DNA of 64,000 nucleotides from an uncultured virus (IMG/VR IMGVR_UViG_3300009159_007116) (lineage: Duplodnaviria > Heunggongvirae > Uroviricota > Caudoviricetes), in IMG/VR virus record IMGVR_UViG_3300009159_007116, positions 1 to 64,000 of that record. The stretch is one strand, 5' to 3'. Position 1 is the stretch's first letter, and the number at the start of each line of letters is the position of its first letter. Positions 2,662 to 53,893 of the stretch are shown here, in pieces. The translations under genes and the position numbers were made by a program. The notes beneath the pieces were generated by a model. That model ran no database searches. It was not told the origin of the DNA and saw only the letters and a program-made list of their open reading frames with translations.

Positions 2662-2870
2662 AAATGTATGTAGTTGGTGGATATAAAGATGGAAAAATTC
2701 GTGTTGGTTTGCTCGACAAGGTTTGGAAAAGCAAAGCTGGAACTGAATTAGTTACCCTAAAGATTCTTGATCATTATAAAGAACATAAAACAGTTTATAG
2801 AACTTATCATAAAAAAGAATTAGATGTTATGAAAGTTTTAGATGTTGATGAAAAGGAAATTGAACAATGA
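2658..2870 (+). CDS. hypothetical protein
   Basis: 70-aa ORF, RBS AGGAG. Confidence 0.75.
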   Translation: MKMYVVGGYKDGKIRVGLLDKVWKSKAGTELVTLKILDHYKEHKTVYRTYHKKELDVMKVLDVDEKEIEQ

Positions 2871-3817
2871 GAATACTTATTACTGGCGGTTATGGGTTTC
2901 TTGGAAAGAGTATTTGTAACAATTTAAAGTTAAAAGGCATTAAAGAACTTACAAATATTGATGAATCTGGAGAAGGGTATTATAGATTTAGAAAAAAAGA
3001 CTTTGATATTATAGATAAACAACAATGTTTAGAGTTAATTAAAAGGTTTAATCCAGAAAAAATAATTCATGCAGCAGCAAAAGTTGGAGGTATAGGAGCA
3101 AATAAAAAATATCCTGCTGATTTTTTCTATGAAAATCTTATGATGGGAGTTAATTTAATAGACTCATGTAAAAATACAAGTATTAATAAAATAATTTTAG
3201 TTGGAACAGTTTGTTCTTATCCAAAAATAACTCCTGTGCCGTTTAAAGAGTCAAATTTGTGGGATGGTTATCCAGAAGAAACGAATGCTGGATATGGAAT
3301 AGCAAAAAAAACAATTCTTACTCAAGCTATATCATATAAACAACAATATGGAATTGATTTTACATATCTTCTTATGGTAAATTTATATGGAATTGGAGAT
3401 AACTTTGATGATCAAAGCTCTCATGTTATTCCTGCATTAATAAAGAAATTTGTTAACGCTAAAAAAAATAATTTAAATTCTGTAGAAGTTTGGGGAACAG
3501 GTAATGCTACTAGAGAATTTTTATATGTAGATGATGCATCAGAAGCAATAGTAAGATCAGTTGATAAATGCGGATCTTTTGAACCAATGAATATAGGCAA
3601 CGGATTTGAAGTAACAATCAAACAAATTACCTCTATAATAAAAACAATTGTTGGATATAATGGAGAAATTGTGTTTAATACAAATTATCCAGATGGTCAA
3701 CCAAGAAGATGTCTAGATACAACTTTATCAAAACAAAATCTAGGTGATTATGCAAACACAAGTCTTTACGAAGGACTAAAGAAAACAATTGAATGGTATT
3801 TGGATTTTAAAAAATGA
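2867..3817 (+). CDS. fcl: GDP-L-fucose synthase / GDP-L-colitose synthase family epimerase-reductase
   Basis: TGGYGFLG Rossmann motif, AAKVGGIGAN, YGIAK catalytic motif, SHVIPAL, WGTG-x-ATREF, PDGQPRR. Confidence 0.9.
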   Translation: MRILITGGYGFLGKSICNNLKLKGIKELTNIDESGEGYYRFRKKDFDIIDKQQCLELIKRFNPEKIIHAAAKVGGIGANKKYPADFFYENLMMGVNLIDSCKNTSINKIILVGTVCSYPKITPVPFKESNLWDGYPEETNAGYGIAKKTILTQAISYKQQYGIDFTYLLMVNLYGIGDNFDDQSSHVIPALIKKFVNAKKNNLNSVEVWGTGNATREFLYVDDASEAIVRSVDKCGSFEPMNIGNGFEVTIKQITSIIKTIVGYNGEIVFNTNYPDGQPRRCLDTTLSKQNLGDYANTSLYEGLKKTIEWYLDFKK

Positions 3818-4587
3818 TCAAAGTACAAACACAAGCTATTCGTGGCGATGAATATCACAGAGGAATTTTTTCTTTTGTAGATCAATTTCTTTCAAACTGT
3901 AAGTATTTTTATGATTTAAAAATTAATTTTAAAATGAATTTTGATTTAAATAAAAAAACAGGTTATTACGATACAGAATACAAAAAAACAGATAATGTTT
4001 GGGAATATTACTTCAATAAAAATTTTGAAGAACAACCAGATCAAATAGTAGAATGGATTGGAAACTATGATTATCATTATGAATTTAATTACAACGATCA
4101 AGAAAAAAGATTTATTTGCAAGGAATTAATAGAAAAACACTTAAGTATAAAGAATGAAATAATTTTAATTGCTAATTCATTCTATCGGAATAACATTAAA
4201 AAAAATAGTTTAGGGGTTCATGTTCGTGGAACAGATATAGAAATACATCATCAAAAAATAAAGTTTGAAAAGTATTTTAAAGAAATAGATGCTCTTTTAA
4301 ATCAATACGAAACAATATTTTTATGTTCAGATGAATATCAAACAATAGATGTTTTTAAAAACAAATATGGAAATAAAATAATTACATATGAATCAAAAAC
4401 ATTATCAAAAAACAATGTTCTACCTGAGTACAAACAAAATGGAAAAAATAAATATAAAATGGGTGAAGATGTTATTGTTGAATCTTTACTTTTAAGTAAA
4501 ACAGATTTTTTACTAAAAGGTAAATCTAATATGTCAAATTTTTCATTGTTATATAATCCACTATTACAATTTAAAAATTTACAATGA
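3814..4587 (+). CDS. fucosyltransferase-like glycosyltransferase (NodZ/GT23-like)
   Basis: GVHVRGTD, IFLCSDE and LLSKTDFLLKGKSNMS match fucosyltransferase motifs I-III. Confidence 0.75.
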   Translation: MIKVQTQAIRGDEYHRGIFSFVDQFLSNCKYFYDLKINFKMNFDLNKKTGYYDTEYKKTDNVWEYYFNKNFEEQPDQIVEWIGNYDYHYEFNYNDQEKRFICKELIEKHLSIKNEIILIANSFYRNNIKKNSLGVHVRGTDIEIHHQKIKFEKYFKEIDALLNQYETIFLCSDEYQTIDVFKNKYGNKIITYESKTLSKNNVLPEYKQNGKNKYKMGEDVIVESLLLSKTDFLLKGKSNMSNFSLLYNPLLQFKNLQ

Positions 4588-4593
4588 GGCTTT

Positions 4594-5757
4594 ATGATAT
4601 CTTTAGCAAGTGACAGCATAACAAAAGAAGACATAAAAAATCTTGTTGAATGGTTGTCTCAAGAAAAAATACCTAAGTTAACTAAAGGACATTTAACAGT
4701 TGAGCTTGAAGAAAAATGGGCAAAAAAAGTTGGTTCAAAATATTCTGTATTTGTTAATTCTGGATCTTCTTCAATACTTTTAACTTTAGCAGCATTAAAA
4801 GAATCTGGAAAATTAAAAAATTTAAAAATAATAGTTCCGGCATTAAGTTGGGCAACAGATGTAAGTTCTCCAATGATACTTGGTTATGAAACTATAATGT
4901 GCGATTGCAACTTGCAAGATTTGTCTTGCGACTTAAATCATTTAGAACAAATCTTTAAAAAAGAAAAACCATCTTTATTTATACTAGTTTCTGTTCTTGG
5001 ATTAGTTCCAAATATGAAACAAGTAAATGAATTGTGTAAAAAGTACGATGTTATATTGTTAGAAGATGCATGTGAATCTATGGGTTCTAAGTATGAAAAT
5101 AAATACCTTGGTTCGTTTGGTTTAGCTTCGTTTTATTCAATGTATTTTGGTCATCATATATCAACTATAGAAGGTGGATTTATAAACACAAATGAAGAAT
5201 GGCTTTATCATTTATTGTTAATGATGAGAAGTCATGGTTGGGATAGAGATCTTTCAAAAGAAAAAAGAGATCAATTAAGAAAAGAAAATGATTGCTCAGA
5301 ATTTAACGCACTTTATAACTTTTACTATCCAGGATTTAATTTAAGATCAACAGACTTGCAAGCATTTATAGGTATAAGAGCTATAGATAAATTAGATGAA
5401 TATGCAAATATAAGAAATAGAAATTTTAACATGTATATGAAATTTTTAACTAATAACGAATTAAATTTAATTTGTAGAGAAGAAGATTTTATTTCAAGTT
5501 TAGCTATGCCGTTTATGCACAAAAATAAAAATAAAATTGTTAATTTGTTAAGAGAAAAAAATATAGAAATAAGACCATTGATTGCTGGAAATATGGCAAA
5601 AAAACCTATGTGGAAAAATAAAAGTGAAGGAATTGTAAATTGTGAACTAATAGATTTGTTTGGTTTTTATCTTCCTAATCATCAAGACTTATCAGAAAAC
5701 GATGTTAAAACTGTATGTTCAATTTGCACTCAGGCCACTCTCTCCACCAATTCTTAG
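4594..5757 (+). CDS. DegT/DnrJ-family PLP enzyme, ColD-like NDP-4-keto-6-deoxysugar 3-dehydratase
   Basis: VNSGSS, LEDACES, SMYFGHHISTIEGG (His where aminotransferases have the Schiff-base Lys), RSHGW. Confidence 0.8.
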   Translation: MISLASDSITKEDIKNLVEWLSQEKIPKLTKGHLTVELEEKWAKKVGSKYSVFVNSGSSSILLTLAALKESGKLKNLKIIVPALSWATDVSSPMILGYETIMCDCNLQDLSCDLNHLEQIFKKEKPSLFILVSVLGLVPNMKQVNELCKKYDVILLEDACESMGSKYENKYLGSFGLASFYSMYFGHHISTIEGGFINTNEEWLYHLLLMMRSHGWDRDLSKEKRDQLRKENDCSEFNALYNFYYPGFNLRSTDLQAFIGIRAIDKLDEYANIRNRNFNMYMKFLTNNELNLICREEDFISSLAMPFMHKNKNKIVNLLREKNIEIRPLIAGNMAKKPMWKNKSEGIVNCELIDLFGFYLPNHQDLSENDVKTVCSICTQATLSTNS

Positions 5758-6721
5758 TAGATGTATCACAATCATATCCATTCCAAGAATATGGGCCATT
5801 TTGAATAAAGTTTTTTCCTTTTGAAGAATCCATAAATAAAAAACAGTCTTTTTTATTGTTTAAAAATCTTTGTCTATGTACATAAGAAGAAAATGTGCTT
5901 CCTGGGGTTCCAATAAAATAATCTGATTCACACATAATTAAAAGAGATATTAATCCTAAAACAACATTGTCATGAAATTCTAATTCTAAAAATTCTTTTT
6001 TAAAAAAATTTAATATTATTTCATCAACAAGTAAGCATTCTTTTTTAAATTCTTTTTTGATTAAATCAACATCATCAGTTGAAAATACAAGCCTATTATT
6101 TTTTTCTTTTATTTGATTTAAAAATTTAAGTCTGTTTTCACTCGTTGCAAAATAGTTTTGAGAATGATCTGTTAGTCTAAAGTGTATAGATGAAAAATTT
6201 CCTATTTGATATGCTATTTTTTTAGCTAAATTTATATATGGATCTTTAAATTTTAATTTGCTTAAAAATATATCAAGTTCTTTAGGTCTATTATAAAAAA
6301 ATCTGCTGTAAAAAGCAAAACAGGTCTTATGAAAAAAATTTTTTGTTGTTTTGTTTAGAGTTAACTTAGCCCTATCTTCAGCAAAACTATTTTCATTTTC
6401 TCCATCATTACATTTGTAATATAAACCAATGATATGTTCATGAATAGTACACGATGTTTGTGAAGCATTGTTGATTAATGAATAATCAATAGAATCTGGA
6501 ATATCAATCAACTGAAAAATATTTGGTTTAAAAGATTCACCTATTTCTTTTATGTTCATTGTTTTTACTGGGGGCAAAAAAATACTACCATAACTTTTAT
6601 TTGAATAATCAAAAAATTTTATATGTGATTTTTCTAAAAAAGAAATGCCCGCACCTATTTCAACTGACATAAGTTGATTTATTAATCCAGCATTATGAAT
6701 TTGCCACAATATGTCATTCAT
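5705..6721 (-). CDS. O-fucosyltransferase-family protein (POFUT-like)
   Basis: AGLINQL, SIHFRLTD, FSTDD, FIGTPGSTFS. Confidence 0.75.
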   Translation of the reverse strand: MNDILWQIHNAGLINQLMSVEIGAGISFLEKSHIKFFDYSNKSYGSIFLPPVKTMNIKEIGESFKPNIFQLIDIPDSIDYSLINNASQTSCTIHEHIIGLYYKCNDGENENSFAEDRAKLTLNKTTKNFFHKTCFAFYSRFFYNRPKELDIFLSKLKFKDPYINLAKKIAYQIGNFSSIHFRLTDHSQNYFATSENRLKFLNQIKEKNNRLVFSTDDVDLIKKEFKKECLLVDEIILNFFKKEFLELEFHDNVVLGLISLLIMCESDYFIGTPGSTFSSYVHRQRFLNNKKDCFLFMDSSKGKNFIQNGPYSWNGYDCDTSTKNWWREWPECKLNIQF

Positions 6722-7506
6722 GAAAATATATTTACCCTATTCCAATTTTCTTTTGTTATATCATTTTGAATATTATTAGGTTCTGGTGCAATAGATCTCC
6801 ACCAACTGTTAGGGCATGTTATAAAATCTTTTCCACTTAAATAAGCACCCATCCAAGAAAATGAAGAATTTGCAATTATATGACTACTGCATTTAGTCAT
6901 CATATACAATGAAACATATTCGTTTTTATTTATTATATGAAAATTTTTTCTGTTTTTAAAATAGTTTTTAACAAAATCAACATCGTCAGAAAAAACAAGA
7001 ACATCTTGATCTGATGGAATGTGTTGTGTAGCAACTTCGTAATATCCAGTTTCTATTAAATTTCCAAAAAAATTAATGTTTAAATAATCTGTTCTTCTAA
7101 CATGAATACTAATTGGATTTTTAAAATTAGAAAGTTCTTTATCTCCATCTTTTATTATGTTTTCTTTAAAGTTCAATGTTTCTATTAATTCTTTTTTATA
7201 ATTATCAAAATACAAGTACGATTGAAAATAACCATGAAAAATTGTGTTGTCTTTATAATTTAATATTGATGGATCAAAGTTACACGAACCTTTTGTTTCT
7301 ACGCAAACATTAAGATTTTTATTCTCTATAAAATCAAATATCTTGACTTTATTAATGTCAAAACAATTCCAGAACTGACAACCATTATTTAATGGAAGAT
7401 GTATTTCATATCCTTTTGATTTATGTATACTGAACAAAAGTGCAAATTGAAATATTTGATTACCAAGTCTGCCCATTGCAGGACCAAATAAACTTATTGT
7501 TATCAT
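6718..7506 (-). CDS. alpha-1,2-fucosyl/colitosyltransferase (GT11)
   Basis: GRLGNQIFQ, GYFQS, SIHVRRTDY, FSDD, IIANSSFSW; start placed at ATG 7506. Confidence 0.88.
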   Translation of the reverse strand: MITISLFGPAMGRLGNQIFQFALLFSIHKSKGYEIHLPLNNGCQFWNCFDINKVKIFDFIENKNLNVCVETKGSCNFDPSILNYKDNTIFHGYFQSYLYFDNYKKELIETLNFKENIIKDGDKELSNFKNPISIHVRRTDYLNINFFGNLIETGYYEVATQHIPSDQDVLVFSDDVDFVKNYFKNRKNFHIINKNEYVSLYMMTKCSSHIIANSSFSWMGAYLSGKDFITCPNSWWRSIAPEPNNIQNDITKENWNRVNIFS

Positions 7507-7522
7507 TTTATATAATCCAAGA

Positions 7523-8005
7523 TTATGAATCCTGCGATAGTTGTTTAGCCATATACTCAGCATGTTTTTGTTCAAACTCTAATATCTTATCTGCTGGCCC
7601 AACATAAGTAAACTTATCACTATTGTAGTGTCTTATCATAGTCATCATGGTTGATTTAAGCCAATTGATTACTTTTTGACAATCGCTGCTATATATAGCA
7701 TTTGGCCATACCTCTTGCCCCATCAGTATATCTATTCCTAAGTCATTGTTTTTGGCAGAAACAGGGTAGAACATCAAACCCAAATTGTTTGGCTTTAAAC
7801 TTTCTTTATTTGGCATAAGACCTAGAATATAAGAACAATCCCATGTCCTACAGCTATGTGGTCTAGATTCATAAATACCACAACCACCACCCTCTGCTCT
7901 ATGATCACAATTCTTATATGTTTTTTTATTGATTTCTTTCACTTCCAATATGTTGCAACACACATCACAATCACCACAAGACCTTTCGCTCATAGGAAGT
8001 TCCAT
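7523..8005 (-). CDS. YkgJ-family cysteine-cluster protein
   Basis: CGDCDVCC...CDH...CGIYESRPHSCRTWDC; RBS AAGGAG. Confidence 0.75.
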   Translation of the reverse strand: MELPMSERSCGDCDVCCNILEVKEINKKTYKNCDHRAEGGGCGIYESRPHSCRTWDCSYILGLMPNKESLKPNNLGLMFYPVSAKNNDLGIDILMGQEVWPNAIYSSDCQKVINWLKSTMMTMIRHYNSDKFTYVGPADKILEFEQKHAEYMAKQLSQDS

Positions 8006-9992: not shown

Positions 9993-10223
9993 ATGGAAAT
10001 TGGAAGTTTAGTTTTTGCTAGAAGATTAAATGAAGCTTTTACTATTTATACTGATTGTGGAAATATAGAAGTTAGCATTAAAGAAATAAGCAAATATTCA
10101 AATCAGGTAAGATTGTGTATTAAAGCACCAAAAAATATTAAAATTATGAGAGATGATGCTGTAGATGTAAGACCAAGCCACATGTTATTTACGCCAACAA
10201 TTCCAAAATCGGAGAAAAAATGA
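9993..10223 (+). CDS. csrA: carbon storage regulator CsrA/RsmA-like RNA-binding protein
   Basis: LVFARRLNE...NQVRLCIKAPKNIKIMRDD matches CsrA LILTRR...QVRIGVNAPK...HREE. Confidence 0.8.
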   Translation: MEIGSLVFARRLNEAFTIYTDCGNIEVSIKEISKYSNQVRLCIKAPKNIKIMRDDAVDVRPSHMLFTPTIPKSEKK

Positions 10224-11497
10224 ACAGAAGACATTTTATAAAACATACTGCTGGCATTTCTGCACTTTCTTTTGTAGGAAAAGTTAAAGCACAAGAAGAA
10301 GTGCTTAAAAAAAATGGTAAAAAGCTAATTGTTTTATGGATGGGTGGCGGTCCTAGTCACATGGATCTTTGGGATTTAAAGCAAGGACAGGCAAATGGCG
10401 GTGAATTCAAGCAAATACTTACTTCTGCAAAAGGAGTGAGTATTAGTGAGGTTCTTCCAACAATAGCTTCTCAATTTCACAATTTAGTTGCTGTTCGATC
10501 TCTTGTGACTAATGAAGGAAGTCATGAGAGAGGAACTGTTTTAATGAATACTGGGCATCAACCAAGCGTTGTTGTTCAGTATCCATCCATTGGTTCAGTA
10601 ACATCTTCTCTTTTAACATCAAAAGAACTACCCTTGCCAGGATTTATTGGGATTGGAAATTCAGCACAAAGGATTGGTCCAGGATTTTTAGGAACAAATC
10701 TTGCACCATTCACAGTTCAAAATGCTGGAACTCCACCAGAGAATATTAAAGCACCAAAGGAAATAGATGATGAAGAAAGACTTAGACGAAGACAAAGACT
10801 GTTTTATACATTGGAAGACGATTTTTCGGAAAGAATTGCACCTCACATTAAAAATAGTGTGGCTAGAGAAGCTATGGGCAATCATGCTCAATCTCACTCT
10901 AATATCTATGGCAAAGCCTTTGATCTTACACTATCTCCGCTAAAAACTATCTTTGAACTAAAAGACGAAAATCCTAAAACGATTGAGTCTTATGGTGGTA
11001 GAGGAAATAACTTTGGAATGGGTTGCCTTCTTGCTAGAAAGTTAATTTCTAAAGGAGTTAGCTGTGTACAAATCGACTTGGGTGGATGGGATAATCATAG
11101 CAATATTTTTAGTACTATTAGGGGCGGGAATGGGAATCGTCTTGATATGGGCATGGGATATTTGGTCAAGGACTTGGTAGATATGGGTATGTGGAAAGAT
11201 ACTGTAGTTATGTGGATGGGAGAGTTTGGCCGTACCCCTAAGATTAATCAGAATGGTGGTCGTGATCATTGGGCTAGATGTTGGTCTGTGGTTCTTGGGG
11301 GTGGTACTATCCAAGGTGGACAGGTTTATGGATCTACAACTTCAGATGGTATGGACATTAAAGACAAGCCTTGCAGTATTTCAGATGTTTATGCTACAGT
11401 GTACAAAGCGTTAGGTTTGGACCCAATGTTTCAAATTAGAGACAATTTAGGGCGACCAATACCTATATCTGATGGTAAGCCACTAAGTATATTTTAG
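10220..11497 (+). CDS. DUF1501 domain protein with Tat signal
   Basis: MNRRHFIK twin-arginine; LWMGGGPSHMDLWDLK, GCLLARKL, GGWDNH, GEFGRTP, GRDHW. Confidence 0.9.
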   Translation: MNRRHFIKHTAGISALSFVGKVKAQEEVLKKNGKKLIVLWMGGGPSHMDLWDLKQGQANGGEFKQILTSAKGVSISEVLPTIASQFHNLVAVRSLVTNEGSHERGTVLMNTGHQPSVVVQYPSIGSVTSSLLTSKELPLPGFIGIGNSAQRIGPGFLGTNLAPFTVQNAGTPPENIKAPKEIDDEERLRRRQRLFYTLEDDFSERIAPHIKNSVAREAMGNHAQSHSNIYGKAFDLTLSPLKTIFELKDENPKTIESYGGRGNNFGMGCLLARKLISKGVSCVQIDLGGWDNHSNIFSTIRGGNGNRLDMGMGYLVKDLVDMGMWKDTVVMWMGEFGRTPKINQNGGRDHWARCWSVVLGGGTIQGGQVYGSTTSDGMDIKDKPCSISDVYATVYKALGLDPMFQIRDNLGRPIPISDGKPLSIF

Positions 11498-11504
11498 GAA
11501 TGCT

Positions 11505-12002
11505 ATGTTATTACATTTAAAAGATTTTTTTACTAAAGAACAATGTTCTTTTTTAAGTGGGATTTTGTTGGATTATTATAAAAATAATAGTCTTGGTTGG
11601 GAAGGTAATGATCAGCATTACAAAAATTCTTATGGTTCAACAATTCCAGAATTTGAATCTGTACTTGAAGACATAACCCCAAGAATAAAAATATTATTAA
11701 AAAATGATAATATTGTAAAGGTAAATAGCTATAGTAGAATTTACTTTAATGATTCTATTTTAAAAAGACATGTAGATAGAGAAGACTTAGAATACACATT
11801 AAGTGTTTGTATATTTGATAATACAAATAAAAAGTGGCCACTATTTGTTGAGCATGATGGTGGTATAGCTGAAGTAATAACAAATGTTGGTGATGGTGGA
11901 TTAATAATGGGAACTAAAATGGCACATTGGAGAGAAAAACTTCTTTGTGAAGAAGATCAAATGGTTATGCAATGTTTTTTCCATTGGAAAAATATTAAAT
12001 AA
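11505..12002 (+). CDS. 2OG-Fe(II) oxygenase
   Basis: YSRIY...LKRHVDR (HxD), HWRE, QCFFHW. Confidence 0.8.
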   Translation: MLLHLKDFFTKEQCSFLSGILLDYYKNNSLGWEGNDQHYKNSYGSTIPEFESVLEDITPRIKILLKNDNIVKVNSYSRIYFNDSILKRHVDREDLEYTLSVCIFDNTNKKWPLFVEHDGGIAEVITNVGDGGLIMGTKMAHWREKLLCEEDQMVMQCFFHWKNIK

Positions 12003-12564
12003 ATTTGTTTTGTCTAATCCAAACAATAGCAATCCACTTGTTTCCAGAAACAACAGGTAATCCTGCATGTATTGAGTCATAGTCTAATGATCCATCATCA
12101 TTTAAATTTGACCAAAGCAAACCTTTGCCTGTTTTTGGAATTACCTTAATATCTTTTTTAACAAATTTTGTTTCGCCACCTTCAAATTCATCGTTTAAAT
12201 AAAACAAAAAGCTGTAAGTCCTTTGCCCACCTCTATTTATATGAACATTATAGTCTTGTGTATTAGCATGAAAAAAATCATGATGTTCTTTGTATTCACC
12301 ACCTATTTCATAATGAACAATATGTATAGCTTCTTGATTTTCTATTGGCAAAGATGTGTGTTCTTGCACTATTTGTTTAATCTTTTTATTTAAATCAACG
12401 CCAAAACTATCTATTACTGGAGATAAAACCCAAGTACCATCTCCAACTCTATAGTTATTATTTTCACCTATAGTTGTTAATTTTCTAAGTTGTGCTTTAG
12501 AATAATCTATTAATGTTTGACAGTCTTCTTTTGTTAACAAATTTTCTATTTCTTTAATAACCAT
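11995..12564 (-). CDS. prolyl 4-hydroxylase-like 2OG-Fe(II) oxygenase
   Basis: YKEHHD, FLFYLND..EGGET.F, HAGLPV..GNKW. Confidence 0.88.
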   Translation of the reverse strand: MVIKEIENLLTKEDCQTLIDYSKAQLRKLTTIGENNNYRVGDGTWVLSPVIDSFGVDLNKKIKQIVQEHTSLPIENQEAIHIVHYEIGGEYKEHHDFFHANTQDYNVHINRGGQRTYSFLFYLNDEFEGGETKFVKKDIKVIPKTGKGLLWSNLNDDGSLDYDSIHAGLPVVSGNKWIAIVWIRQNKFI

Positions 12565-12600
12565 TGAAAAAGTCCTTTATAAAATATATTATGACAAAAG

Positions 12601-12629
12601 TTGAATAATTGTTTGTTTCATACGAACAA
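12601..12629 (+). promoter_or_regulatory. bipartite promoter motif, copy 5
   Basis: TTGAAT-15nt-ACGAACAA. Confidence 0.75.
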
Positions 12630-12690
12630 TATAGTATGGATCTGGTTATGTTACCAGATTAATTTGTAGGATTCTTTAGGAGGAAGATTT

Positions 12691-12912
12691 ATGTTCGATT
12701 TGTTATTGGCAACATCGATTGCCTTTGGTTCTGAATCTGTTAACGCTATTGGACTTCGTTCTAAGTCCAGTTGTTCTGGTGGTGTTTGTTCGTCTTCTGC
12801 ATCAGCACCTGTTGTAGTTGATGCTAAGAATAAGCCAGAAACAAAGGTTGTTGCTGCTCAACAAAAGCAGTCTAGGTTTAAGGGTGTTCTTCGTGGGAAG
12901 AAATGTCGTTAA
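12691..12912 (+). CDS. small secreted Cys-containing peptide
   Basis: Signal-like N-terminus, CSGGVC motif, basic tail; strong RBS AGGAGG. Confidence 0.75.
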   Translation: MFDLLLATSIAFGSESVNAIGLRSKSSCSGGVCSSSASAPVVVDAKNKPETKVVAAQQKQSRFKGVLRGKKCR

Positions 12913-12924
12913 TCTATATGAGAC

Positions 12925-12957
12925 ATGGGGTTGTGTCAAAAACAGCCCCATTGTTTT
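12925..12957 (+). terminator. putative rho-independent terminator
   Basis: ATGGGGTTGT/ACAGCCCCAT stem followed by TGTTTT. Confidence 0.6.
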
Positions 12958-12997
12958 GTAAGAAAAACATATACATATTTCTTACAAGGAGGTTTAA

Positions 12998-13897
12998 ATG
13001 CTTAAAGTTTATGACATGTTTTCGGGTATAGGTGGTTTTGCTTTAGGATTTCAAAAAGAAGGTTTTGAAGTAACTGCTTTTGCAGAATTAGACAAGTATC
13101 CTTCTCAAGTCTTAGCAAAAAACTTTCCAAACATTCCAAATTATGGCGATGTTACAAAAATAAAATACGAAAAAAATCAATTTGATGTAATAGTTGGGGG
13201 TTTTCCCTGCACAGATATATCTATAGCAAGTCAATCAAAGGAGGGAATATATGGCAAAAGATCGTTCTTGTGGAAAGAGTTCTTCAGAGCAGTTGGAGAT
13301 ATTCAACCCAAATATTGCGTCATTGAAAATGTCCAAATGCTCGTTAGAAGAGGGCTTAACACGATACTCAGCGACCTTGCCTCCATCGGGTACGATGCGA
13401 CTTATACGACACTCGATGCCCAATACTGTGGAACAGCCCAAAGAAGGCGTAGAATTTACATTTTGGGAGTCCGTGATGGAATCCCCGCCAATAGCGATAT
13501 ATTCGAGTTTGGCCCTCGTAGTACTAGAACCTGTCAACAAAGCATGGAACTTGTCAAAAAGAGCTTTGAATGGAATTTTAAAGAGAGCATGTGGTTCAAA
13601 GAAACCTTTGCCTACTTTACTCGCCAAAGAAGTGATCAATTTGATGAATGCGGAGTGTCATCGACCTTAACAAAAAGAGATTATAAATCATTTACAGATT
13701 TAGTAGTCTCTAATGGTAATATACGCAGAGTAACGCCCACAGAGAGGCTTAGACTTATGGGTTTTCATGACCATTGGCATATTCCAGATGCTTCAAATAC
13801 AGATAAGTATAAATACAATGGTATGCATGTACCTTCAGTTCAGTACATAGCAAGATGTTTAAAGGAGTATCATAAATGTTTGAATTCTCAAAAATAG
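12998..13897 (+). CDS. DNA (cytosine-5)-methyltransferase, alpha chain
   Basis: Motif I FSGIGG, IV GFPC, VI ENV, VIII QRRRRIY, IX TPTERLRLMGF. Confidence 0.92.
   Translation: MLKVYDMFSGIGGFALGFQKEGFEVTAFAELDKYPSQVLAKNFPNIPNYGDVTKIKYEKNQFDVIVGGFPCTDISIASQSKEGIYGKRSFLWKEFFRAVGDIQPKYCVIENVQMLVRRGLNTILSDLASIGYDATYTTLDAQYCGTAQRRRRIYILGVRDGIPANSDIFEFGPRSTRTCQQSMELVKKSFEWNFKESMWFKETFAYFTRQRSDQFDECGVSSTLTKRDYKSFTDLVVSNGNIRRVTPTERLRLMGFHDHWHIPDASNTDKYKYNGMHVPSVQYIARCLKEYHKCLNSQK
13251..13670 (+). CDS. nested alternative-frame protein resembling M.EcoHK31I beta polypeptide
   Basis: Own RBS AAGGAGGG; motifs SATLPPSGTM and LSKRALNGILKRA..KKPLP; locally elevated GC consistent with dual coding. Confidence 0.7.
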   Translation: MAKDRSCGKSSSEQLEIFNPNIASLKMSKCSLEEGLTRYSATLPPSGTMRLIRHSMPNTVEQPKEGVEFTFWESVMESPPIAIYSSLALVVLEPVNKAWNLSKRALNGILKRACGSKKPLPTLLAKEVINLMNAECHRP

Positions 13898-14508
13898 CAG
13901 AAAAGTTTGATGAACACTTGTCTGGACAACTATATTGGCACAGCAATTTTGTTAATCATTTCTTGCCTGAGATTGCATCGGTATTTATGGCAGAAGAAAC
14001 AAATGTGTACGATTTTGGTGCAAGCACAGGTAATGTGGAATTGGCTTTATCAAGTATGATTAAGTCAAGAAACATAGACTATATACCAGTTGAAAAATGC
14101 AAAGAGATGGTAGAAAGATATAAAGGTGAAAGCGAAGTAGTTCTTGATGACTTTCTCAATATTTATATGGAAGAGTTTTCATTTGCCACATGCATTTTAT
14201 CTTTATGTTTTGTTCACCCATCAAAAAGAGAAATGTTTATTGATTCTTTAAAAAATAATTGTATGGTCGGAGGTGCTTTTGTAATATTAGAAAAAATGAA
14301 ATCTAGGGGTGGATATCTAGGAACAGCCTTAAATAGAGTTACATGGCGTAATAAGATTGAAAATGGCGAATCTGTAAAAATGGTAGTTAATAAAGAACTT
14401 TCTTTAAGTGGAGTTCAATATCCTCTAAGTGAAAAAGAACTTGAAGAATTTGAGTTAATATGGGCGTATGGTGATTTTCGTGCTTACATTTGGCTAAAGG
14501 AGTTTTAA
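13876..14508 (+). CDS. CmoA-like class I SAM-dependent enzyme
   Basis: FEFSKIAEKFDEH, VYDFGASTG, LCFV, GGAFVILEK resemble CmoA; RBS AAGGAG; overlaps MTase end. Confidence 0.7.
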   Translation: MFEFSKIAEKFDEHLSGQLYWHSNFVNHFLPEIASVFMAEETNVYDFGASTGNVELALSSMIKSRNIDYIPVEKCKEMVERYKGESEVVLDDFLNIYMEEFSFATCILSLCFVHPSKREMFIDSLKNNCMVGGAFVILEKMKSRGGYLGTALNRVTWRNKIENGESVKMVVNKELSLSGVQYPLSEKELEEFELIWAYGDFRAYIWLKEF

Positions 14509-14509
14509 A

Positions 14510-14758
14510 ATGGAAGAAGAATTAGATTATCATTGTTCTGAATGTGGAATACAAATTTCAGAGTGGATGCTTAGAGATGTTGATGGAGTTACAGTTGACA
14601 CTTGTTTAAATTGTGCTATTAAAACATCATTGATGTCATGCCCTGTTTGCAATAAAGATATAGGTATGACAAATGTAGATCGTGCAAATAGAATACTTGG
14701 TGAAGGATGGGAAGAAATGTGTGAAAAATGTGCTGTTGAATTTAAAAGGAAAGTTTAA
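14510..14758 (+). CDS. zinc-finger protein
   Basis: Four CxxC pairs. Confidence 0.75.
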   Translation: MEEELDYHCSECGIQISEWMLRDVDGVTVDTCLNCAIKTSLMSCPVCNKDIGMTNVDRANRILGEGWEEMCEKCAVEFKRKV

Positions 14759-14759
14759 A

Positions 14760-14915
14760 ATGGAAGATGAATTTGTTATTACTTTTTTAGGTAAAAAGTA
14801 TAGAATTAAAGATGTAAAAAAAACAATTAAAGAAAAAGAAAAAACAGCTAAAGTTTTTAATCATAAATATATAAGTAAAATAGACGAAAAAATATGTAAG
14901 TGGGAAATAAAATGA
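14760..14915 (+). CDS. hypothetical protein
   Basis: ATG just after previous stop, ATGA overlap with next. Confidence 0.5.
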   Translation: MEDEFVITFLGKKYRIKDVKKTIKEKEKTAKVFNHKYISKIDEKICKWEIK

Positions 14916-15331
14916 AAAGCATAAAAATAAAGATTGACGATGAAATTTTCTATGTTTTTTATAGTGAAGAATGTAATTTAAAAAAAGACATAACTAAATT
15001 AGACTGGGGTCAACTGCTATATCATTTAAAAGATTCGGTTTTTCCAAAACAAGAAGATGTAGACGAAGACACAGATAATAACCACATAATAGATTTATCT
15101 TTATTTTTAGATGATTTTAAGTTTTTAGTATTTACACACTCTTTTGGAAGCAAAAGAGTTTTTTCTATTTATTGTAATCAAAAAATAATATCAAAGAAAA
15201 AGTTAGCGTTTGGAAAATGGTCTGCTCAACTTGAATGTGGTCATTCATATATAATGGATGAAAAAATAGACGATTTGAATAAGTTTAAAAGAATTTTTTG
15301 TTCTAAATGTTTGGAGGAATCTAATGGATAA
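14912..15331 (+). CDS. hypothetical protein with C-terminal LECGH...CxxC domain (paralogue of 8674-9075)
   Basis: WSAQLECGH...CSKC. Confidence 0.7.
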   Translation: MKSIKIKIDDEIFYVFYSEECNLKKDITKLDWGQLLYHLKDSVFPKQEDVDEDTDNNHIIDLSLFLDDFKFLVFTHSFGSKRVFSIYCNQKIISKKKLAFGKWSAQLECGHSYIMDEKIDDLNKFKRIFCSKCLEESNG

Positions 15332-15767
15332 AGGTTATATTCGTAAAGACAAATTATCTGAAATAAAATTGGAATCTGGAGGATTAGCGTTAATATCTAT
15401 AGAGCAAATTCAAAATTTGCTTGAAAGTTTAACTGGTAAACATTATGACATTTTTGAATTATTTCAAATGTTAAGATCTTTTGATGGCGACATAATTAAC
15501 ATGGACATGATGGAAACTATTATTGTAGAAGGTTTGTATACATTAAATACAGATGGAACTAACTGCAAGCATGTTACTATATCTCCCATTGCAGAAGACA
15601 AAGAAACTTCTAGAATGATATGTGAAGGCGAAAAAACAATGGAAGAATATTATATTTCTGAAACAAAAAGACTTAAGGTAAATATTTCAAAGAATCTTGG
15701 TTTTGTGACTGAGAAGTGCAATGAATACAAAAAGGCAATGTTAGGTAAAAAATATGAAAACAGATGA
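15324..15767 (+). CDS. hypothetical protein
   Basis: 147-aa ORF, RBS GGAGG. Confidence 0.75.
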   Translation: MDKGYIRKDKLSEIKLESGGLALISIEQIQNLLESLTGKHYDIFELFQMLRSFDGDIINMDMMETIIVEGLYTLNTDGTNCKHVTISPIAEDKETSRMICEGEKTMEEYYISETKRLKVNISKNLGFVTEKCNEYKKAMLGKKYENR

Positions 15768-16377: not shown

Positions 16378-16966
16378 TGAAATTATGTTTAACCAAAGAA
16401 TACCTAGCTTACTTGTTGTTGATAACTTTTATAAAGATCCAGACTTTATTGTAGAAGAAACAAAAAAGTTTGAGTTTAAAGAAGAAAATAAATTTTATAA
16501 AGGAAAAAGAACAACATCTTGTTTGTTTCCATATGTAAAAGAAGAATTTGAAAAGTTATTGCAAGTTCAAATAGTTGACTGGTTAAATCAACCAATGAAT
16601 GGCGTTTTTCAAATAACAGAAGGCAAAGATCCTTTAGTATATCATAGTGATCAACAAGACTATGCAGCAGCAGTATACTTAACAAAAGATGGACCAACAA
16701 ATGCAGGAACATCATTTTGGATAGATAAAAAATATGGTTGTAGAAGACCGCCAAGTCACCCATTAGAAAATAGAGAAGGAATAAGCGATTCAGATATATA
16801 TACACAATACAATTTATTAAATGAAGATAATTGGGAATTGGTAGATAAAGTTGGATCTGTGTATAATCGGCTTGTTCTTTGGGATGGTAAAATGATTCAT
16901 TCTGCTAGTATGTATGGTGAATTTCCTAGATTGGTTCAACTATTCTTTTTTAATGTGAAAAAATAA
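16370..16966 (+). CDS. 2OG-Fe(II) oxygenase-like protein (DUF6445-like)
   Basis: VVDNFY.DP, YHSD, AAVYLT, GTSF, YNRLVLWD...HS. Confidence 0.78.
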   Translation: MDNEIMFNQRIPSLLVVDNFYKDPDFIVEETKKFEFKEENKFYKGKRTTSCLFPYVKEEFEKLLQVQIVDWLNQPMNGVFQITEGKDPLVYHSDQQDYAAAVYLTKDGPTNAGTSFWIDKKYGCRRPPSHPLENREGISDSDIYTQYNLLNEDNWELVDKVGSVYNRLVLWDGKMIHSASMYGEFPRLVQLFFFNVKK

Positions 16967-18216
16967 TGCCATACTTTTCTATAGTTACACCAACAAATAA
17001 CACTCAATTTCTTGCTAGGCTTGCTAGATCTATATCCAAGCAAACATTCAAAGATTTTGAGTGGGTTATTGTTCCAAATGGTAACGCTAATATTGACATT
17101 GAATCTTTGGCTTTTAGTCCAAGGATTATAGAATCAAAAAAACCAGATTCAAAATTGATTGGTCTTTTTAAAAAAGAAGGGTGCATGGCATCCAATGGAA
17201 CTGTAGTTGTAGAAGTTGATCATGATGATGAGCTTACAGAAGATTGTTTGCAAGAATTATATAATGAATTTAATTCAAATCAAACTATTGATTTTGCATA
17301 TTCAAATTGTGCAGAGATAGACCCTAATGGAAAACCATTTGTATATCACAATAGATATGGTTGGAGAAATAGACCATTTAAATATCAAGGTAAAGATCTT
17401 TTAGAGCTTATATCATTTGATCCAACTCCAGCTTCATTTTCTAAAATATGGTTTGCCCCAAATCATGTTCGTGCATGGAAAAAATCGTTCTACGAAAAAA
17501 TTGGTGGTCACGATGAAACAATGGAAGTTTTAGATGATCATGATATTCTATGCAAAACATATATACAAGGCAAAGTTAAACATATAGATAAGTGCTTGTA
17601 TATTTATTACAAACATAAAAACAATACTTGTTATGGCGAAAAGAATGCATTCATTCAAGAAGAAACATTAAATATTCATGACAGATATATTTATGCGTTG
17701 ACTGAGAAATGGTGTGACCTTAATGGTTTGCTTAAGATAGACCTTTGCGGTGGTTTTAATCCTCCAAAGGGGTACAAGTCGATAGACATGCATAACGCAG
17801 AAATTATACACGATTTAAACAATCCTTGGCCTTTTAAAGATGGCGAAGTAGGATTGATAAGGGCACATGATGCACTTGAGCATTTAAAAGATCCGATTCA
17901 TGTTATGAAAGAAGCACATAGGTGTCTTTGTCCAATGGGTTGGTTTTTAACGCAGACCCCATCCACTGATGGCAGAGGTGCTTTTCAAGACCCAACACAT
18001 ATAGCATTTTGGAATAGTAATAGCTTTTGGTATTACACTAAAGAAGAACAAGCAAAATATATTGGAACACCAGTAAGATTTCAAGGTAATAGAATTAAGA
18101 ATTTTTACCCAACTGAATGGCATAAAACACACAATATTCTTTATGTAAAAGCAGATCTAATAAGGCTTCCAGAAAAAGATTCAAGCACAAGAGTTCCAGG
18201 AGAAGTTATGATATGA
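16966..18216 (+). CDS. GT2 glycosyltransferase fused to class I SAM methyltransferase
   Basis: FSIVTPT, VEVDHDD; C-terminal IDLCGG, DALEH, QDPTH. Confidence 0.85.
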   Translation: MPYFSIVTPTNNTQFLARLARSISKQTFKDFEWVIVPNGNANIDIESLAFSPRIIESKKPDSKLIGLFKKEGCMASNGTVVVEVDHDDELTEDCLQELYNEFNSNQTIDFAYSNCAEIDPNGKPFVYHNRYGWRNRPFKYQGKDLLELISFDPTPASFSKIWFAPNHVRAWKKSFYEKIGGHDETMEVLDDHDILCKTYIQGKVKHIDKCLYIYYKHKNNTCYGEKNAFIQEETLNIHDRYIYALTEKWCDLNGLLKIDLCGGFNPPKGYKSIDMHNAEIIHDLNNPWPFKDGEVGLIRAHDALEHLKDPIHVMKEAHRCLCPMGWFLTQTPSTDGRGAFQDPTHIAFWNSNSFWYYTKEEQAKYIGTPVRFQGNRIKNFYPTEWHKTHNILYVKADLIRLPEKDSSTRVPGEVMI

Positions 18217-18773
18217 ATCACATATATCATCTTCCGCAATTTGGAGAGAATTGGTTTACATATCCACATTTATATAAATCAATGGTTGAAAAGTTTTCCT
18301 CTGGAAGTAAGTTTGTAGAGGTTGGTTCATGGAAAGGAAAAAGTGCAGCTTATCTTGCCGTAGAAATTATAAATTCTAAAAAAGATATAAAATTAGATTG
18401 TGTAGACACATGGAAAGGTAGTTCTGAACATGTAGATAATGAGTATGTAAAATCAAATTCTTTATACGAATTGTTTATTGAAAACACATCTTCTTTATCT
18501 TCTATCATTAATCCAATTAAAATGGATTCTATTAGTGCATCAAAAACATATGAAGATAATTCAATAGATTTTGTTTTTATTGATGCTAATCATGAGTATA
18601 TACATGTAAAAAATGATATAGAAGCATGGTTTCCTAAAGTAAAAGTAGGAGGAACTATTGCTGGACACGATTATAGAAATGGTTGGACAGATGTAGACAA
18701 AGCCGTTAATGAATTTTTTGCTGGAAAAAAGATTTTAGCTGGCGAAAGTTGTTGGGTTTACGAGAAAATTTAA
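18213..18773 (+). CDS. class I SAM methyltransferase (Methyltransf_24-like)
   Basis: VEVGSWKGKS, FIDANH, GGTIAGHDY. Confidence 0.85.
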   Translation: MNHIYHLPQFGENWFTYPHLYKSMVEKFSSGSKFVEVGSWKGKSAAYLAVEIINSKKDIKLDCVDTWKGSSEHVDNEYVKSNSLYELFIENTSSLSSIINPIKMDSISASKTYEDNSIDFVFIDANHEYIHVKNDIEAWFPKVKVGGTIAGHDYRNGWTDVDKAVNEFFAGKKILAGESCWVYEKI

Positions 18774-19381
18774 TGGACTTAGCATTATTAGTTCATGCAT
18801 GTGACAAGTATTCTTTTGTTTTTGAAAGATTTTTAAAAGCATTTGATGTTTTTAACTTGAGCATACCATGTTATTTCTCAACAGAATCTACAGAAATAAA
18901 AAACAGTCGATTTGAAAATATAAATATAAATGAAAATATATGGTCATTAAGATTAAAAGAAGTTTTGTTTAAAATAAAAGAAAAAAACATAGTTCTTCTT
19001 CAAGAAGACTTTATAGTAAATAGTTTTAATAAAAATTTGTTTTGTGATCTTTATAAGTTTCACAATGATTATGGTTCAGACATTACTAAGACAGGTTCGT
19101 TTAAAACCTTTTCGTTGCTAAAAACTTCTGTTGAAAATATGTACGCACAAAAATATGGTTATTATTTAATGAGTCATCAACCAATAGCTATATTCAATAA
19201 AGAGTTTTTAATATCAACGCTAAATGAAAAACAAAATGCCAGTGAGCACGAAATGTATTGGTCTGAAAAAATAAAGGAAAATAGTATTTTTTGTTTTGGT
19301 AAAAATGAATTTGATCATCAAATGTTTAATCCTGTTTTTGGATATACACATGTTATAAGCAAGGGTAAGCTAATAGCTTAA
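18773..19381 (+). CDS. putative GT-A-like glycosyltransferase
   Basis: ACDKYS, WSLRL, LLQEDF pattern; TAATG coupling. Confidence 0.55.
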   Translation: MDLALLVHACDKYSFVFERFLKAFDVFNLSIPCYFSTESTEIKNSRFENININENIWSLRLKEVLFKIKEKNIVLLQEDFIVNSFNKNLFCDLYKFHNDYGSDITKTGSFKTFSLLKTSVENMYAQKYGYYLMSHQPIAIFNKEFLISTLNEKQNASEHEMYWSEKIKENSIFCFGKNEFDHQMFNPVFGYTHVISKGKLIA

Positions 19382-19890
19382 CCATGCCATATCTTTTCTT
19401 CTGGACCAAGCAATCTTGCTAAAGTAAATAGGAAATCGCTAAGTCTATTTATAAATACAACAATGTTTTTAAAATCTTGATGTGCTTCCATAAGTCTGAC
19501 TAAATCAATTTCAACTCTTCTGCATACTGCTCTAGCCAAATGAATTTCACAATGATTGAATGGGATTATAAAATTCTTTAATGGCTTTAAACTTTTAGTC
19601 ATTAAATCAATAATGTCTTCTGTTTTTTTAATGTGTTCTTCTTTTATTCTTTCTTTTCCAGTAGCCACTTCTGCACCAACTTCAAAAAGAAGATTTTGTA
19701 TTTCTATTATAAATTCGTACACTTCATGGACTTTTAATTCTAAAATATACTTTTGATTAACAAATCCAATCCAAGCATTAAGCTCATCAATACTACCAAG
19801 AAGCTGTATATTAGGATTAGTTTTAGGTACTCTACCTATTTTTGGCAAAAGTGTAGTTCCGTCATCACCAGTTTTTGTATATATTTTCAT
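19378..19890 (-). CDS. pduO: ATP:cob(I)alamin adenosyltransferase (PduO type)
   Basis: MKIYTKTGDDGTT, GSIDELNA, ARAVCRRVE, NRLSDFLF; start moved to ATG 19890. Confidence 0.92.
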   Translation of the reverse strand: MKIYTKTGDDGTTLLPKIGRVPKTNPNIQLLGSIDELNAWIGFVNQKYILELKVHEVYEFIIEIQNLLFEVGAEVATGKERIKEEHIKKTEDIIDLMTKSLKPLKNFIIPFNHCEIHLARAVCRRVEIDLVRLMEAHQDFKNIVVFINRLSDFLFTLARLLGPEEKIWHG

Positions 19891-19899
19891 TTTAAATTC

Positions 19900-19928
19900 T
19901 TGAATATTTTGGTTGTTAAAACGAATAC
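19900..19928 (+). promoter_or_regulatory. bipartite promoter motif, copy 6
   Basis: TTGAAT-15nt-ACGAATAC in divergent intergenic region. Confidence 0.72.
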
Positions 19929-19963
19929 TATTATATATTACTAAACTATAAGGAGGAATCAAT

Positions 19964-20176
19964 ATGAAAGTAATAATTAGAAACATGTCTGGAGAATTTT
20001 TTTGCAAACAGCCAGAAGTTGGATTAACAAATCTAAAGAAAGATGCATATGTTTTTGATTGTTATAATGAAGAACATGCAAATTTAGTATTAGAAAAAAC
20101 AAAACAATTTATTTCAAACAGTGATTTAAATTTAGAAGTTATTGAAACAACACAAATAAATCTAAATGTAGAATAG
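19964..20176 (+). CDS. hypothetical protein
   Basis: RBS AAGGAGG. Confidence 0.75.
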   Translation: MKVIIRNMSGEFFCKQPEVGLTNLKKDAYVFDCYNEEHANLVLEKTKQFISNSDLNLEVIETTQINLNVE

Positions 20177-24423: not shown

Positions 24424-24908
24424 TGCCTTTAAAAAAATGTTCTGAAAATGGTAAAAATGGTTGGAAGTGGGGAGATCAAGGGAAGTGTTATGCTGGAAAA
24501 GAAGGTAAAAAACAAGCAATAAGACAAGGCATTTCAATTGAAGGACCAGAAAAATTTTCTAAGATAATGAAATCTCAATCACATGAAGATCTTTATTTAC
24601 AACTTTCAGACGATGAGAAGCATTTAGCGGATGCACTTATTGCGTTATCTCAAAAAGTTGGACCATTAGATAAATCTGATGGTATTTGGGTAGGATACGA
24701 AAATGCAGAAAATAATGAAGTAAAAGATATTGGTGTAAAATGCGGAAACTGTGCATTACATAAATCAGAAAATGCATGTGTGATTATTGATCAAACAATA
24801 GAACCTGATGGTGCTTGCAGATTTGCAGTAATTCCAGATGGTTATATAACTTCTGCCAAAGTAAAAAAACATATAGAAGAGTACTTAAATGAAAATAATT
24901 CTAAATAA
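24423..24908 (+). CDS. hypothetical protein with HiPIP-like Cys motif
   Basis: CGNC...C...IEPDGAC. Confidence 0.6.
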   Translation: MPLKKCSENGKNGWKWGDQGKCYAGKEGKKQAIRQGISIEGPEKFSKIMKSQSHEDLYLQLSDDEKHLADALIALSQKVGPLDKSDGIWVGYENAENNEVKDIGVKCGNCALHKSENACVIIDQTIEPDGACRFAVIPDGYITSAKVKKHIEEYLNENNSK

Positions 24909-25383
24909 TAATGAACTACTAAAGAAAAAATGTTTAAATGTTGATTTAAAAACAGGATTTAAAATTGCTAAAAGAATGGGTATGTTTTTAAATACATTAA
25001 AGAAAAAAACAAAAAATAGAATAGTTGGTTTAGCAGCTAATCAAATTGGTATAGATGCATGTGTATCTATTGTTTTAAAAAATAATAAACCTTTTGTTTT
25101 AATAAATCCAAAAATCATTGCTTTTTCTGATGTTAGAATTAGAAATAAAGAACAGTGTTTAAGTTATCCAGATGTTGAATTAGATATATATAGACATATG
25201 TGGGTTGAAGTTTATTGTGATAATCATAAAGAAACAATTTTTTTTGGTAATGTTTCTCTTGAAAGTGATCCTATTAAAAATCTTGAGAGTGCAGTTGTTC
25301 AGCATGAAATAGCACACTTGCATGGTTTAACATTTTATGACTTCCAATGGAACAATGCACCAACACCAGCGGAGTGGAATTAA
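24889..25383 (+). CDS. def: peptide deformylase
   Basis: GLAANQIG, EQCLS, QHEIAHLHG. Confidence 0.9.
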   Translation: MKIILNNNELLKKKCLNVDLKTGFKIAKRMGMFLNTLKKKTKNRIVGLAANQIGIDACVSIVLKNNKPFVLINPKIIAFSDVRIRNKEQCLSYPDVELDIYRHMWVEVYCDNHKETIFFGNVSLESDPIKNLESAVVQHEIAHLHGLTFYDFQWNNAPTPAEWN

Positions 25384-47511: not shown

Positions 47512-47539
47512 TTAATTGAAAAAAATTTAAGGATTGAAT

Positions 47540-53892: not shown

Positions 53893-53893
53893 A

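Follow-up and report, generated by a model that had tools for sequence, protein, structure and literature searches.

A phage CmoA–cytosine transferase gene pair as a candidate second lineage of carboxy-SAM-dependent DNA modification

Introduction

Which chemical group does a phage cytosine transferase attach to DNA when its gene overlaps that of a CmoA-like enzyme? The question is raised by two genes at positions 12998..14508 of a 64,000-nucleotide stretch of DNA (hereafter the window) from an uncultured virus of the Caudoviricetes (IMGVR_UViG_3300009159_007116). The window was taken from a 75,920-base IMG/VR virus record with an estimated completeness of 51%. It has a G+C content of about 30% and carries phage replication genes (DnaB, primase, a split DNA polymerase III alpha subunit, a RecA-like protein, single-stranded-DNA-binding protein, and ribonucleotide reductase).

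A precedent is available in Synechococcus phage S-B43, in which CmoA, CmoX, and CmoY make 5-carboxymethylcytosine (5cxmC) and its glycine amide (Yang et al., Nat Commun 2025, PMC12783734). S-B43 CmoA forms carboxy-S-adenosylmethionine (carboxy-SAM, Cx-SAM; m/z 443) from S-adenosylmethionine (SAM) and prephenate with a kcat of 2.33 per s; CmoX, a C5-methylase homologue adjoining CmoA, introduces 5cxmC at GC sites, and CmoY ligates glycine onto 5cxmC (PMC12783734). In the CmoX structure 8YF3 the carboxylate is bound by Arg350, which replaces Asn304 of HhaI, and 5,615 candidate CmoX proteins were gathered by requiring SPPC and Arg350 (PMC12783734). Natural 5cxmC was established only in December 2025 (PMC12783734), and a literature search returned no further report of natural DNA carboxymethyltransferases besides that paper.

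A sequence-only reading of the window had pointed to natural phage pairs of CmoA and a C5-methyltransferase, for which CmoA and CmoX (with CmoY) of S-B43 are the published example (PMC12783734). The locus is interpreted here, with a probability of roughly 0.6, as a two-gene DNA-modification cassette of the CmoA–CmoX kind, the transferase representing a second lineage of carboxy-SAM-dependent cytosine transferases. This kind of system is already published; what is new is a CmoA-linked transferase lineage outside the published CmoX definition.

Results

Gene pair and CmoA-like protein

The two genes of the cassette are:

12998..13897, plus strand: C5-cytosine DNA transferase, 299 aa, 'NGM' family
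13876..14508, plus strand: CmoA-like protein, 210 aa, putative carboxy-SAM synthase

The two open reading frames (ORFs) share positions 13876-13897, which agrees with the 22-nt overlap reported in the sequence-only reading, and every string quoted there (FEFSKIAEKFDEH, VYDFGASTG, GGAFVILEK, YKYNGMHVP, and NKELSLSGV) was recovered from the translations.

The best NCBIfam family of the CmoA-like ORF was TIGR00740 (6.8e-20, 71.8 bits). A match to phrog_4752 was obtained at 1.3e-32, and the nearest solved structures were those of E. coli CmoA (4iwn and 4gek, about 1e-11). The AlphaFold2 model (mean predicted local distance difference test score, pLDDT, 87.2) was compared with solved structures by Foldseek, and the first six matches were CmoA/YecO structures (TM-score, TMq, 0.85-0.88); 4gek_A was matched with an E value of 1.8e-14, a TMq of 0.88, and a root-mean-square deviation of 2.8 Å. 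The model has the fold of CmoA, with lid helices covering the cofactor. The SAM-binding motif YDFGASTG and the conserved LEK (E. coli E164-K165) are present, the E. coli CmoA columns D62, G64, S66, F137, E164, K165, and K198 are occupied by identical residues, and the Arg143 column is also conserved. The Tyr39 column is His in the CmoA clade of the window, and the Asn132 column is Ile.

Residues Lys173-Glu174 (Glu codon 14395-14397) correspond to Lys198-Arg199 of E. coli CmoA, in which Arg199 forms a salt bridge with the carboxylate (PMC3663124). The by-eye placement of Glu opposite Arg199 was confirmed with HMMER and MAFFT, and the Arg199 salt bridge has no counterpart at this position. Glu also occupies this column in the validated S-B43 CmoA (MAFFT, HMMER against 4gek, and hhalign). 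Among 40 distinct phage CmoA homologues aligned from the collected loci, the column holds E, Q, D, A, S, or N and in no case Arg (0/40), and Lys198 is invariant. The nearest homologue from an isolated phage, that of Moraxella phage Mcat8 (31% identity, E 5e-40), has the same KELSLSG motif as the window protein; its gene overlaps a canonical SPPC/GRM (Arg-type) CmoX gene, which is itself preceded by a ParB-like gene.

Transferase and its motif X

The ORF at 12998-13897 encodes a C5-cytosine methylase homologue (PF00145 at 2.3e-54, TIGR00675 at 1.2e-49). It contains motif I (FSGIGGF), motif IV (GGFPCTDI) with the catalytic Cys71 (13208-13210), motif VI (ENV), motif VIII (QRRRR), and motif X (YKYNGMHVP, 13808-13834; Asn274 codon 13817-13819). 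Cys71, E110-N111-V112, and Q148-R152 do not vary across the family alignment, and the transferase has both the fold and the catalytic motifs of a CmoX. In the AlphaFold2 model (pLDDT 82.8) a helix spans residues 267-272, a loop residues 273-277, and a further helix starts at 278. The top Foldseek match was M.HhaI (5.7e-18); CmoX (8yf3) was ranked 21 (2.8e-14).

The description of motif X as atypical holds: the Gly before the Asn has been lost, and the Asn itself is most likely retained, as judged from the alignments, as Asn274. HMMER against M.HhaI (gapless from the Asn through the shared QYIA helix), MAFFT with a set including 64 canonical phage methylases, and hhalign agreed in placing Asn274 in the canonical-Asn column (HhaI N304 / S-B43 CmoX R350); in this register the Leu-Gly before the canonical Asn is absent. 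Asn274 most likely occupies the position of M.MpeI Asn374 as well, which would leave the transferase with no known carboxylate-binding residue. A register with Gly275 on the canonical Gly, and Met276 at the Asn position, is less likely, since all three programs place Asn274. Met276 is likewise non-cationic, and the Arg of CmoX is therefore lacking in either register. A comparison of the NGM family with SpCmoX by hhalign covered only the N-terminal 167 columns and is thus uninformative on motif X.

In place of the GSPPCSAFS of SpCmoX and of the Mcat8 enzyme, the window transferase has GGFPCTDI, and in place of the canonical motif X Q-x-G-N-[AS]-V it has K-Y-N-G-M-H-V-P, with G-M following the Asn. 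With GFPC and Asn274 it does not pass either of the two CmoX filters of PMC12783734, and by the stated filter NGM enzymes should be absent from the 5,615 candidates. Judged by the published signature, the transferase is not a CmoX and is assigned to a separate motif-X family, 'NGM'. The composition of motif X was assessed in 121 rows (the window protein plus the 120 homologues matching it best). The sequence x-G-M was found in 119 of the 121, and the residue before Gly/Ala was Asn in 103 rows, Cys in 13, and Q/P/T/S in 4. His277 was considered as a new carboxylate binder and rejected: only 14 of the 121 have it, these share 66% identity or more with the window transferase, and CmoA-linked relatives have Thr or Ser instead.

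Conserved linkage of transferase and CmoA

Conservation of the gene neighbourhood, which the sequence-only reading had proposed to survey, was assessed by three alignment scans of IMG/VR. The scan with the CmoA-like protein returned 32 loci. In 30 of these, a methylase of the window's family directly precedes the CmoA-like gene and overlaps it to the same extent; the other two are L053, with another C5-methylase, and one locus with no upstream sequence. The scan with the full-length methylase returned 80 loci. Ten contain a full-length NGM methylase, and all ten have an adjoining CmoA homologue; in four of them the motif reads NGMT or NGMS and identity to the query is only 50-60%. The remaining 70 carry the canonical GNAVVP motif X and are 36-53% identical to the NGM family over the first ~150-230 residues; in none of them (0/70) was CmoA found within 5 kb. 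The N-G-M loop is the sole feature that separates the CmoA-linked family from this canonical sister group.

The scan with the C-terminal half of NGM methylases returned 66 loci, of which 64 belong to the family. A CmoA homologue is directly adjacent in 62 of the 64; in a further locus (L181), a 5.9-kb record with terminal repeats, CmoA lies at the opposite end, bringing the linkage to 63/64. No CmoA was found in the 48-kb, 27%-complete record of the remaining locus (L202), and the two non-family loci (canonical QAGNS) have no CmoA neighbour. When clustered at 70% identity, the 63 CmoA-neighboured loci form 17 clusters, all linked, and L202 forms an eighteenth, unlinked one. CmoA lies upstream rather than downstream of the methylase in L147, L150-156, and L204, and the CmoA partners of NGM methylases are drawn from several subclades. 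A single real relative was found in GTDB (185,579 genomes), on a 3.8-kb contig of a metagenome-assembled genome (L210), and it has the pair. The genomic association of CmoX with a phage CmoA thus has its counterpart both in the window, as the 22-nt overlap, and in 63 of the 64 family loci. The linkage is old and specific and has withstood rearrangement, as would be expected of a transferase that depends on the product of CmoA.

Among isolated phages, NGM methylases were found in four Vibrio phage records. These gave no match (0) to the CmoA-like protein, and phages S4-7 and 1.052.A gave no TIGR00740 match at E<=0.01. CmoA occurs in the Gammaproteobacteria. Because of this distribution, and because the S-B43 paper cites a CmoB structure from Vibrio vulnificus (PMC12783734), the hosts of these phages are expected to have CmoA and to supply carboxy-SAM; the CmoA of an E. 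coli host is able to supply the cofactor (PMC12783734). CmoA-less members of the family would then draw on the Cx-SAM pool of the host.

Several further observations were made on related loci. The CmoA-like ORF at L067:5858-6292 (= L189) is short (145 aa) with an unrelated tail beside an intact methylase, reflecting a frameshift or an assembly error. Among the contigs of L187/L183 and L196/L180 (206 and 221 kb), a single large phage contig bears two separate methylase–CmoA pairs at a distance of ~150 kb; the two methylases share 74% identity and the two CmoA proteins 71%, the motifs X read CGMDVHSV and CGMHVPSV, and each methylase has its own CmoA copy. A third C5-methylase lineage lies directly against CmoA homologues at L053:124-1164 and L070:5713-6729 (the L142 contig), with GGFPCKPWS / GGVPCLPFS as motif IV and YERCSGIP[SP]L, without Asn, as motif X. 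The L053 enzyme overlaps the start of a CmoA-like gene whose product is 63% identical to that of the window, and the L070 enzyme follows CmoA, which is thereby flanked by two different methylases. In a Staphylococcus phage SPbeta-like record (KT429160.1; L029:3974-5673) an annotated cmoA (TIGR00740 at 3.2e-46) is followed by an hhaIM-annotated methylase with GSPCQSF and the motif X DVVGGVINQL, in which no Arg or Asn is recognisable; it is CmoA-linked and outside the published signature.

Layout and expression signals

The cassette forms part of a three-gene unit, the signals of which, together with its third gene, are:

12925..12951, plus strand: terminator-like hairpin with T-run, which closes off the 73-aa ORF upstream (12691-12912); the three-gene unit starts after it
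12986..12992, plus strand: AAGGAGG ribosome-binding site of the methyltransferase gene, read from the sequence
13862..13867, plus strand: AAGGAG ribosome-binding site of the CmoA-like gene, within the end of the methyltransferase gene
14497..14502, plus strand: AAGGAG ribosome-binding site of the zinc-ribbon ORF, read from the sequence
14510..14758, plus strand: 82-aa ORF with four CxxC pairs (two zinc ribbons), beginning 2 nt past the CmoA-like stop

The hairpin has a 10-pair stem with 5 G-C pairs; four terminator-like sites were found in 12000-15500, and 1.3 were expected from shuffled sequences. All three genes (3/3) have AAGGAG-type ribosome-binding sites 8-10 nt before an ATG, and the position of that of the CmoA-like gene, inside the end of the methyltransferase gene, indicates predicted translational coupling of the two.

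The zinc-ribbon ORF was considered as a third part of the module and rejected, as it adjoins only one clade and has no informative family match. Pfam gave weak Zn_ribbon matches below the cut-off, a search of PHROGs gave none, and in the protein atlas only generic small zinc-finger clusters were found. The ORF lies 3' of the CmoA-like gene (directly or, in one locus, ~0.8 kb away) in 23 loci whose CmoA-like proteins are 91-99% identical to that of the window. In the clade with CmoA-like proteins of 63-73% identity, no homologue adjoins; a 33% match was found ~2.5 kb further on in 6 loci and none in 5. The ORF is unrelated to the one after S-B43 CmoX. It is co-transcribed, and these searches gave no evidence for its membership in the modification module.

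Discussion

Proposed mechanism

From the identities, folds, and catalytic motifs of the two proteins, the coupling signals, and the conserved linkage, we infer which cofactor is made, which group is transferred, and what the pair does biologically, as follows. The CmoA-like enzyme would convert SAM and prephenate into carboxy-SAM. In the coupled transferase, Cys71 would attack C6 of a flipped-out cytosine, and the carboxymethyl group would be moved to C5, giving 5-carboxymethylcytosine at target sites in the phage DNA, which would probably be protected from host restriction. Since no CmoY was found in the 75.9 kb, the mark would stay 5cxmC unless a ligase is encoded in the half of the genome that the record lacks: among the 101 ORFs of the record, Pfam gave neither an Asn-synthase nor an AMP-ligase family, and phmmer with SpCmoY gave no match (0) in the 66 family loci. 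By analogy, the S-B43 precedent of a phage CmoA with an adjoining C5-methyltransferase homologue lends support to this proposal.

A number of points weigh against it. On the side of the CmoA-like protein, the score of 71.8 bits is under the curated TIGR00740 cut-off of 193.3 bits; that of the validated S-B43 CmoA (115.6 bits) is likewise under it, so that this cut-off does not delimit carboxy-SAM synthase activity. The protein also lacks Arg199, and column 203, one helical turn beyond column 199, is Ser in the window subclade and Arg in the S-B43 and staphylococcal phage CmoA proteins. In the transferase, neither of the flanking residues Lys272 and His277 is conserved across the NGM family, and no conserved cationic residue is found in the motif-X loop. 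All DNA enzymes shown to use Cx-SAM in PMC12783734, PMC12015181, and PMC13288465 have Arg or Lys in motif X (SpCmoX R350, M.MpeI N374K, M.MedI N377K, and M.CviPI Y205K/R). The R350N variant of SpCmoX is inactive with both cofactors (PMC12783734), and wild-type M.MedI (Asn) and wild-type M.CviPI (Tyr) are described as poor or inactive with Cx-SAM in PMC12015181 and PMC13288465, respectively. SAM is reported to be ~400-fold commoner than Cx-SAM in E. coli (PMC13288465). Finally, the record is only about half complete.

With no Arg or Lys in motif X, the transferase would need another way to bind or obtain the cofactor, and a direct hand-over of carboxy-SAM from the coupled CmoA is conceivable. 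That the NGM transferases are second, independently recruited natural carboxymethyltransferases, which would read Cx-SAM without a motif-X Arg/Lys by means of the N-G-M loop, perhaps with such a hand-over, is judged to have about even chances.

Alternative explanations

The strongest competitor, although itself unlikely, is an ordinary SAM-using methylase that produces 5-methylcytosine (5mC), the CmoA-like enzyme either draining host SAM as a counter-defence or feeding Cx-SAM to glycan or tRNA modification. It draws on the retention of Asn274 at the site whose residue, wherever it has been tested, distinguishes carboxymethyl from methyl enzymes, on the SAM depletion by CmoA raised in the Discussion of PMC12783734, and on the wealth of glycosyltransferases and other methyltransferases in the window. 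A SAM-consuming enzyme coupled in translation to a SAM-dependent methylase would, however, work against that methylase, and neither draining nor diversion sits well with a linkage that is specific to one methylase family (63/64 loci versus 0/70 canonical-motif relatives) and survives both inversion of gene order and exchange of CmoA subclades.

Formation of a SAM analogue other than Cx-SAM, and hence of a new and different cytosine modification, had been suggested in the sequence-only reading from the Glu in place of Arg199, and is improbable. The alignment of Glu174 with Arg199 is real, the window subclade is without the column-203 Arg of the S-B43 and staphylococcal phage proteins, and the partner transferase has no cationic residue for a carboxylate. 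The argument from Glu itself does not hold: because S-B43 CmoA, which is a validated Cx-SAM synthase with Glu, the 40 phage homologues, and the Mcat8 protein share a non-Arg residue in this column, the Glu gives no reason to expect a different analogue. Moreover, the KELSLSG-type CmoA of Mcat8 stands beside an Arg-type CmoX, and no other substrate-supplying gene is linked. The wider suggestion of a possible non-methyl cytosine modification thus survives with carboxymethyl as the most likely product, and only the different analogue loses its support. A reading of the pair as decaying or as a non-functional remnant, for which the truncated ORF of L067/L189 in one related contig might be cited, is very improbable, as each ORF is intact and has a ribosome-binding site of its own, all catalytic motifs are present, and both proteins are conserved across many contigs at identities from 99% down to about 50%.

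Neighbouring and other genes of the window

Further genes near the cassette and elsewhere in the window are:

9993-10223: CsrA homologue, upstream of the cassette
10220-11497: DUF1501 protein with a twin-arginine-like N-terminus, upstream of the cassette
11995-12564, minus strand: 2-oxoglutarate-Fe(II) oxygenase, upstream of the cassette
12691-12912: 73-aa Ser/Cys/Val-rich ORF with a hydrophobic N-terminus, preceding the terminator-like hairpin
19378-20007, minus strand: cobalamin adenosyltransferase
24889-25383: peptide deformylase
27812-28627: ThyX-like protein
54984-55718: PhoH

In the comparison of 32 loci, the oxygenase is retained at its upstream position by the closest relatives alone, and the 73-aa ORF, which gave no Pfam family match, is conserved upstream of the methylase in 10 of the 32 (70-100% identity). 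DNA polymerase III alpha is split between two ORFs (PHP and NTPase, 47534-49456; finger, HhH, and OB, 50363-51988); a 93-aa ORF and the gene for an RNase T/epsilon-like exonuclease (49720-50358) lie between them. A 673-aa protein (39179-41200) combines an N-terminal P-loop part (DnaC-like loader/terminase PHROGs) with a C-terminal RecA/UvsX-like domain. Sugar-nucleotide and glycan genes are unusually numerous (2867-7575, 16966-19381, 26043-27113, 32645-33382, and 52393-59430) and comprise an epimerase, a DegT aminotransferase, glycosyltransferases of families GT11, GT2, and GT1 (four of the last), a GT2-methyltransferase fusion, a class I methyltransferase, and a nucleoside triphosphate (NTP) transferase; this load suggests phage-directed glycan synthesis.

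Implications

The published estimate of the spread of 5cxmC among phages was made with the SPPC and Arg350 filter, which misses the NGM family. If this family uses carboxy-SAM, the modification is more widespread than counted, the choice of cofactor in C5-methyltransferases is not readable from one residue, and new natural enzymes, probably with other target sequences, would become available for the sequencing and footprinting methods that currently rely on engineered carboxymethyltransferases. If the product is plain 5mC instead, the near-obligate CmoA neighbour needs another cause, for example SAM depletion, which would be relevant to counter-defence.

Comparison with known systems

The cassette resembles that of S-B43 in that a phage CmoA stands in one operon with a C5-methyltransferase homologue (Pro-Cys, ENV, and QxRxR), and in the Glu that both CmoA proteins have in the E. 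coli Arg199 column. The window transferase shares only 27% identity with SpCmoX, confined to the N-terminal half, and has GFPC in place of its SPPC and Asn274 in place of its Arg350. Identity between the CmoA-like protein and SpCmoA amounts to 25%, and the former lacks the column-203 Arg of the latter. The gene order in the window is transferase and then CmoA, with the 22-nt overlap, and neither a CmoY ligase nor a ParB-domain gene was found in the 75.9 kb record, in contrast to S-B43.

Like the engineered carboxymethyltransferases M.MpeI N374K, M.MedI N377K, and M.CviPI Y205K/R (PMC12015181, PMC13288465), the window enzyme has the fold and mechanism of a C5-methyltransferase, in which motif X lines the pocket that receives the transferred group. 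In those enzymes a cationic motif-X residue confers the use of Cx-SAM; the window enzyme instead combines Asn at that position with a remodelled loop, NGMH. The E. coli CmoA/CmoB pathway to uridine 5-oxyacetic acid (cmo5U) in tRNA (4GEK, 4IWN) shares the CmoA fold (TMq 0.88); unlike that pathway, the window record has no CmoB, and Arg199 is replaced by Glu.

The methylases of Vibrio phages S4-7, 1.052.A, and 1.233.A/B are annotated only as DNA methyltransferases and differ from the window enzyme in their length of 346-355 aa, with a C-terminal extension. They are 47-51% identical to it over 99% of its length, and share with it the NGM[ST]VP type of motif X and the KRDYK/TRQRS target-recognition region.

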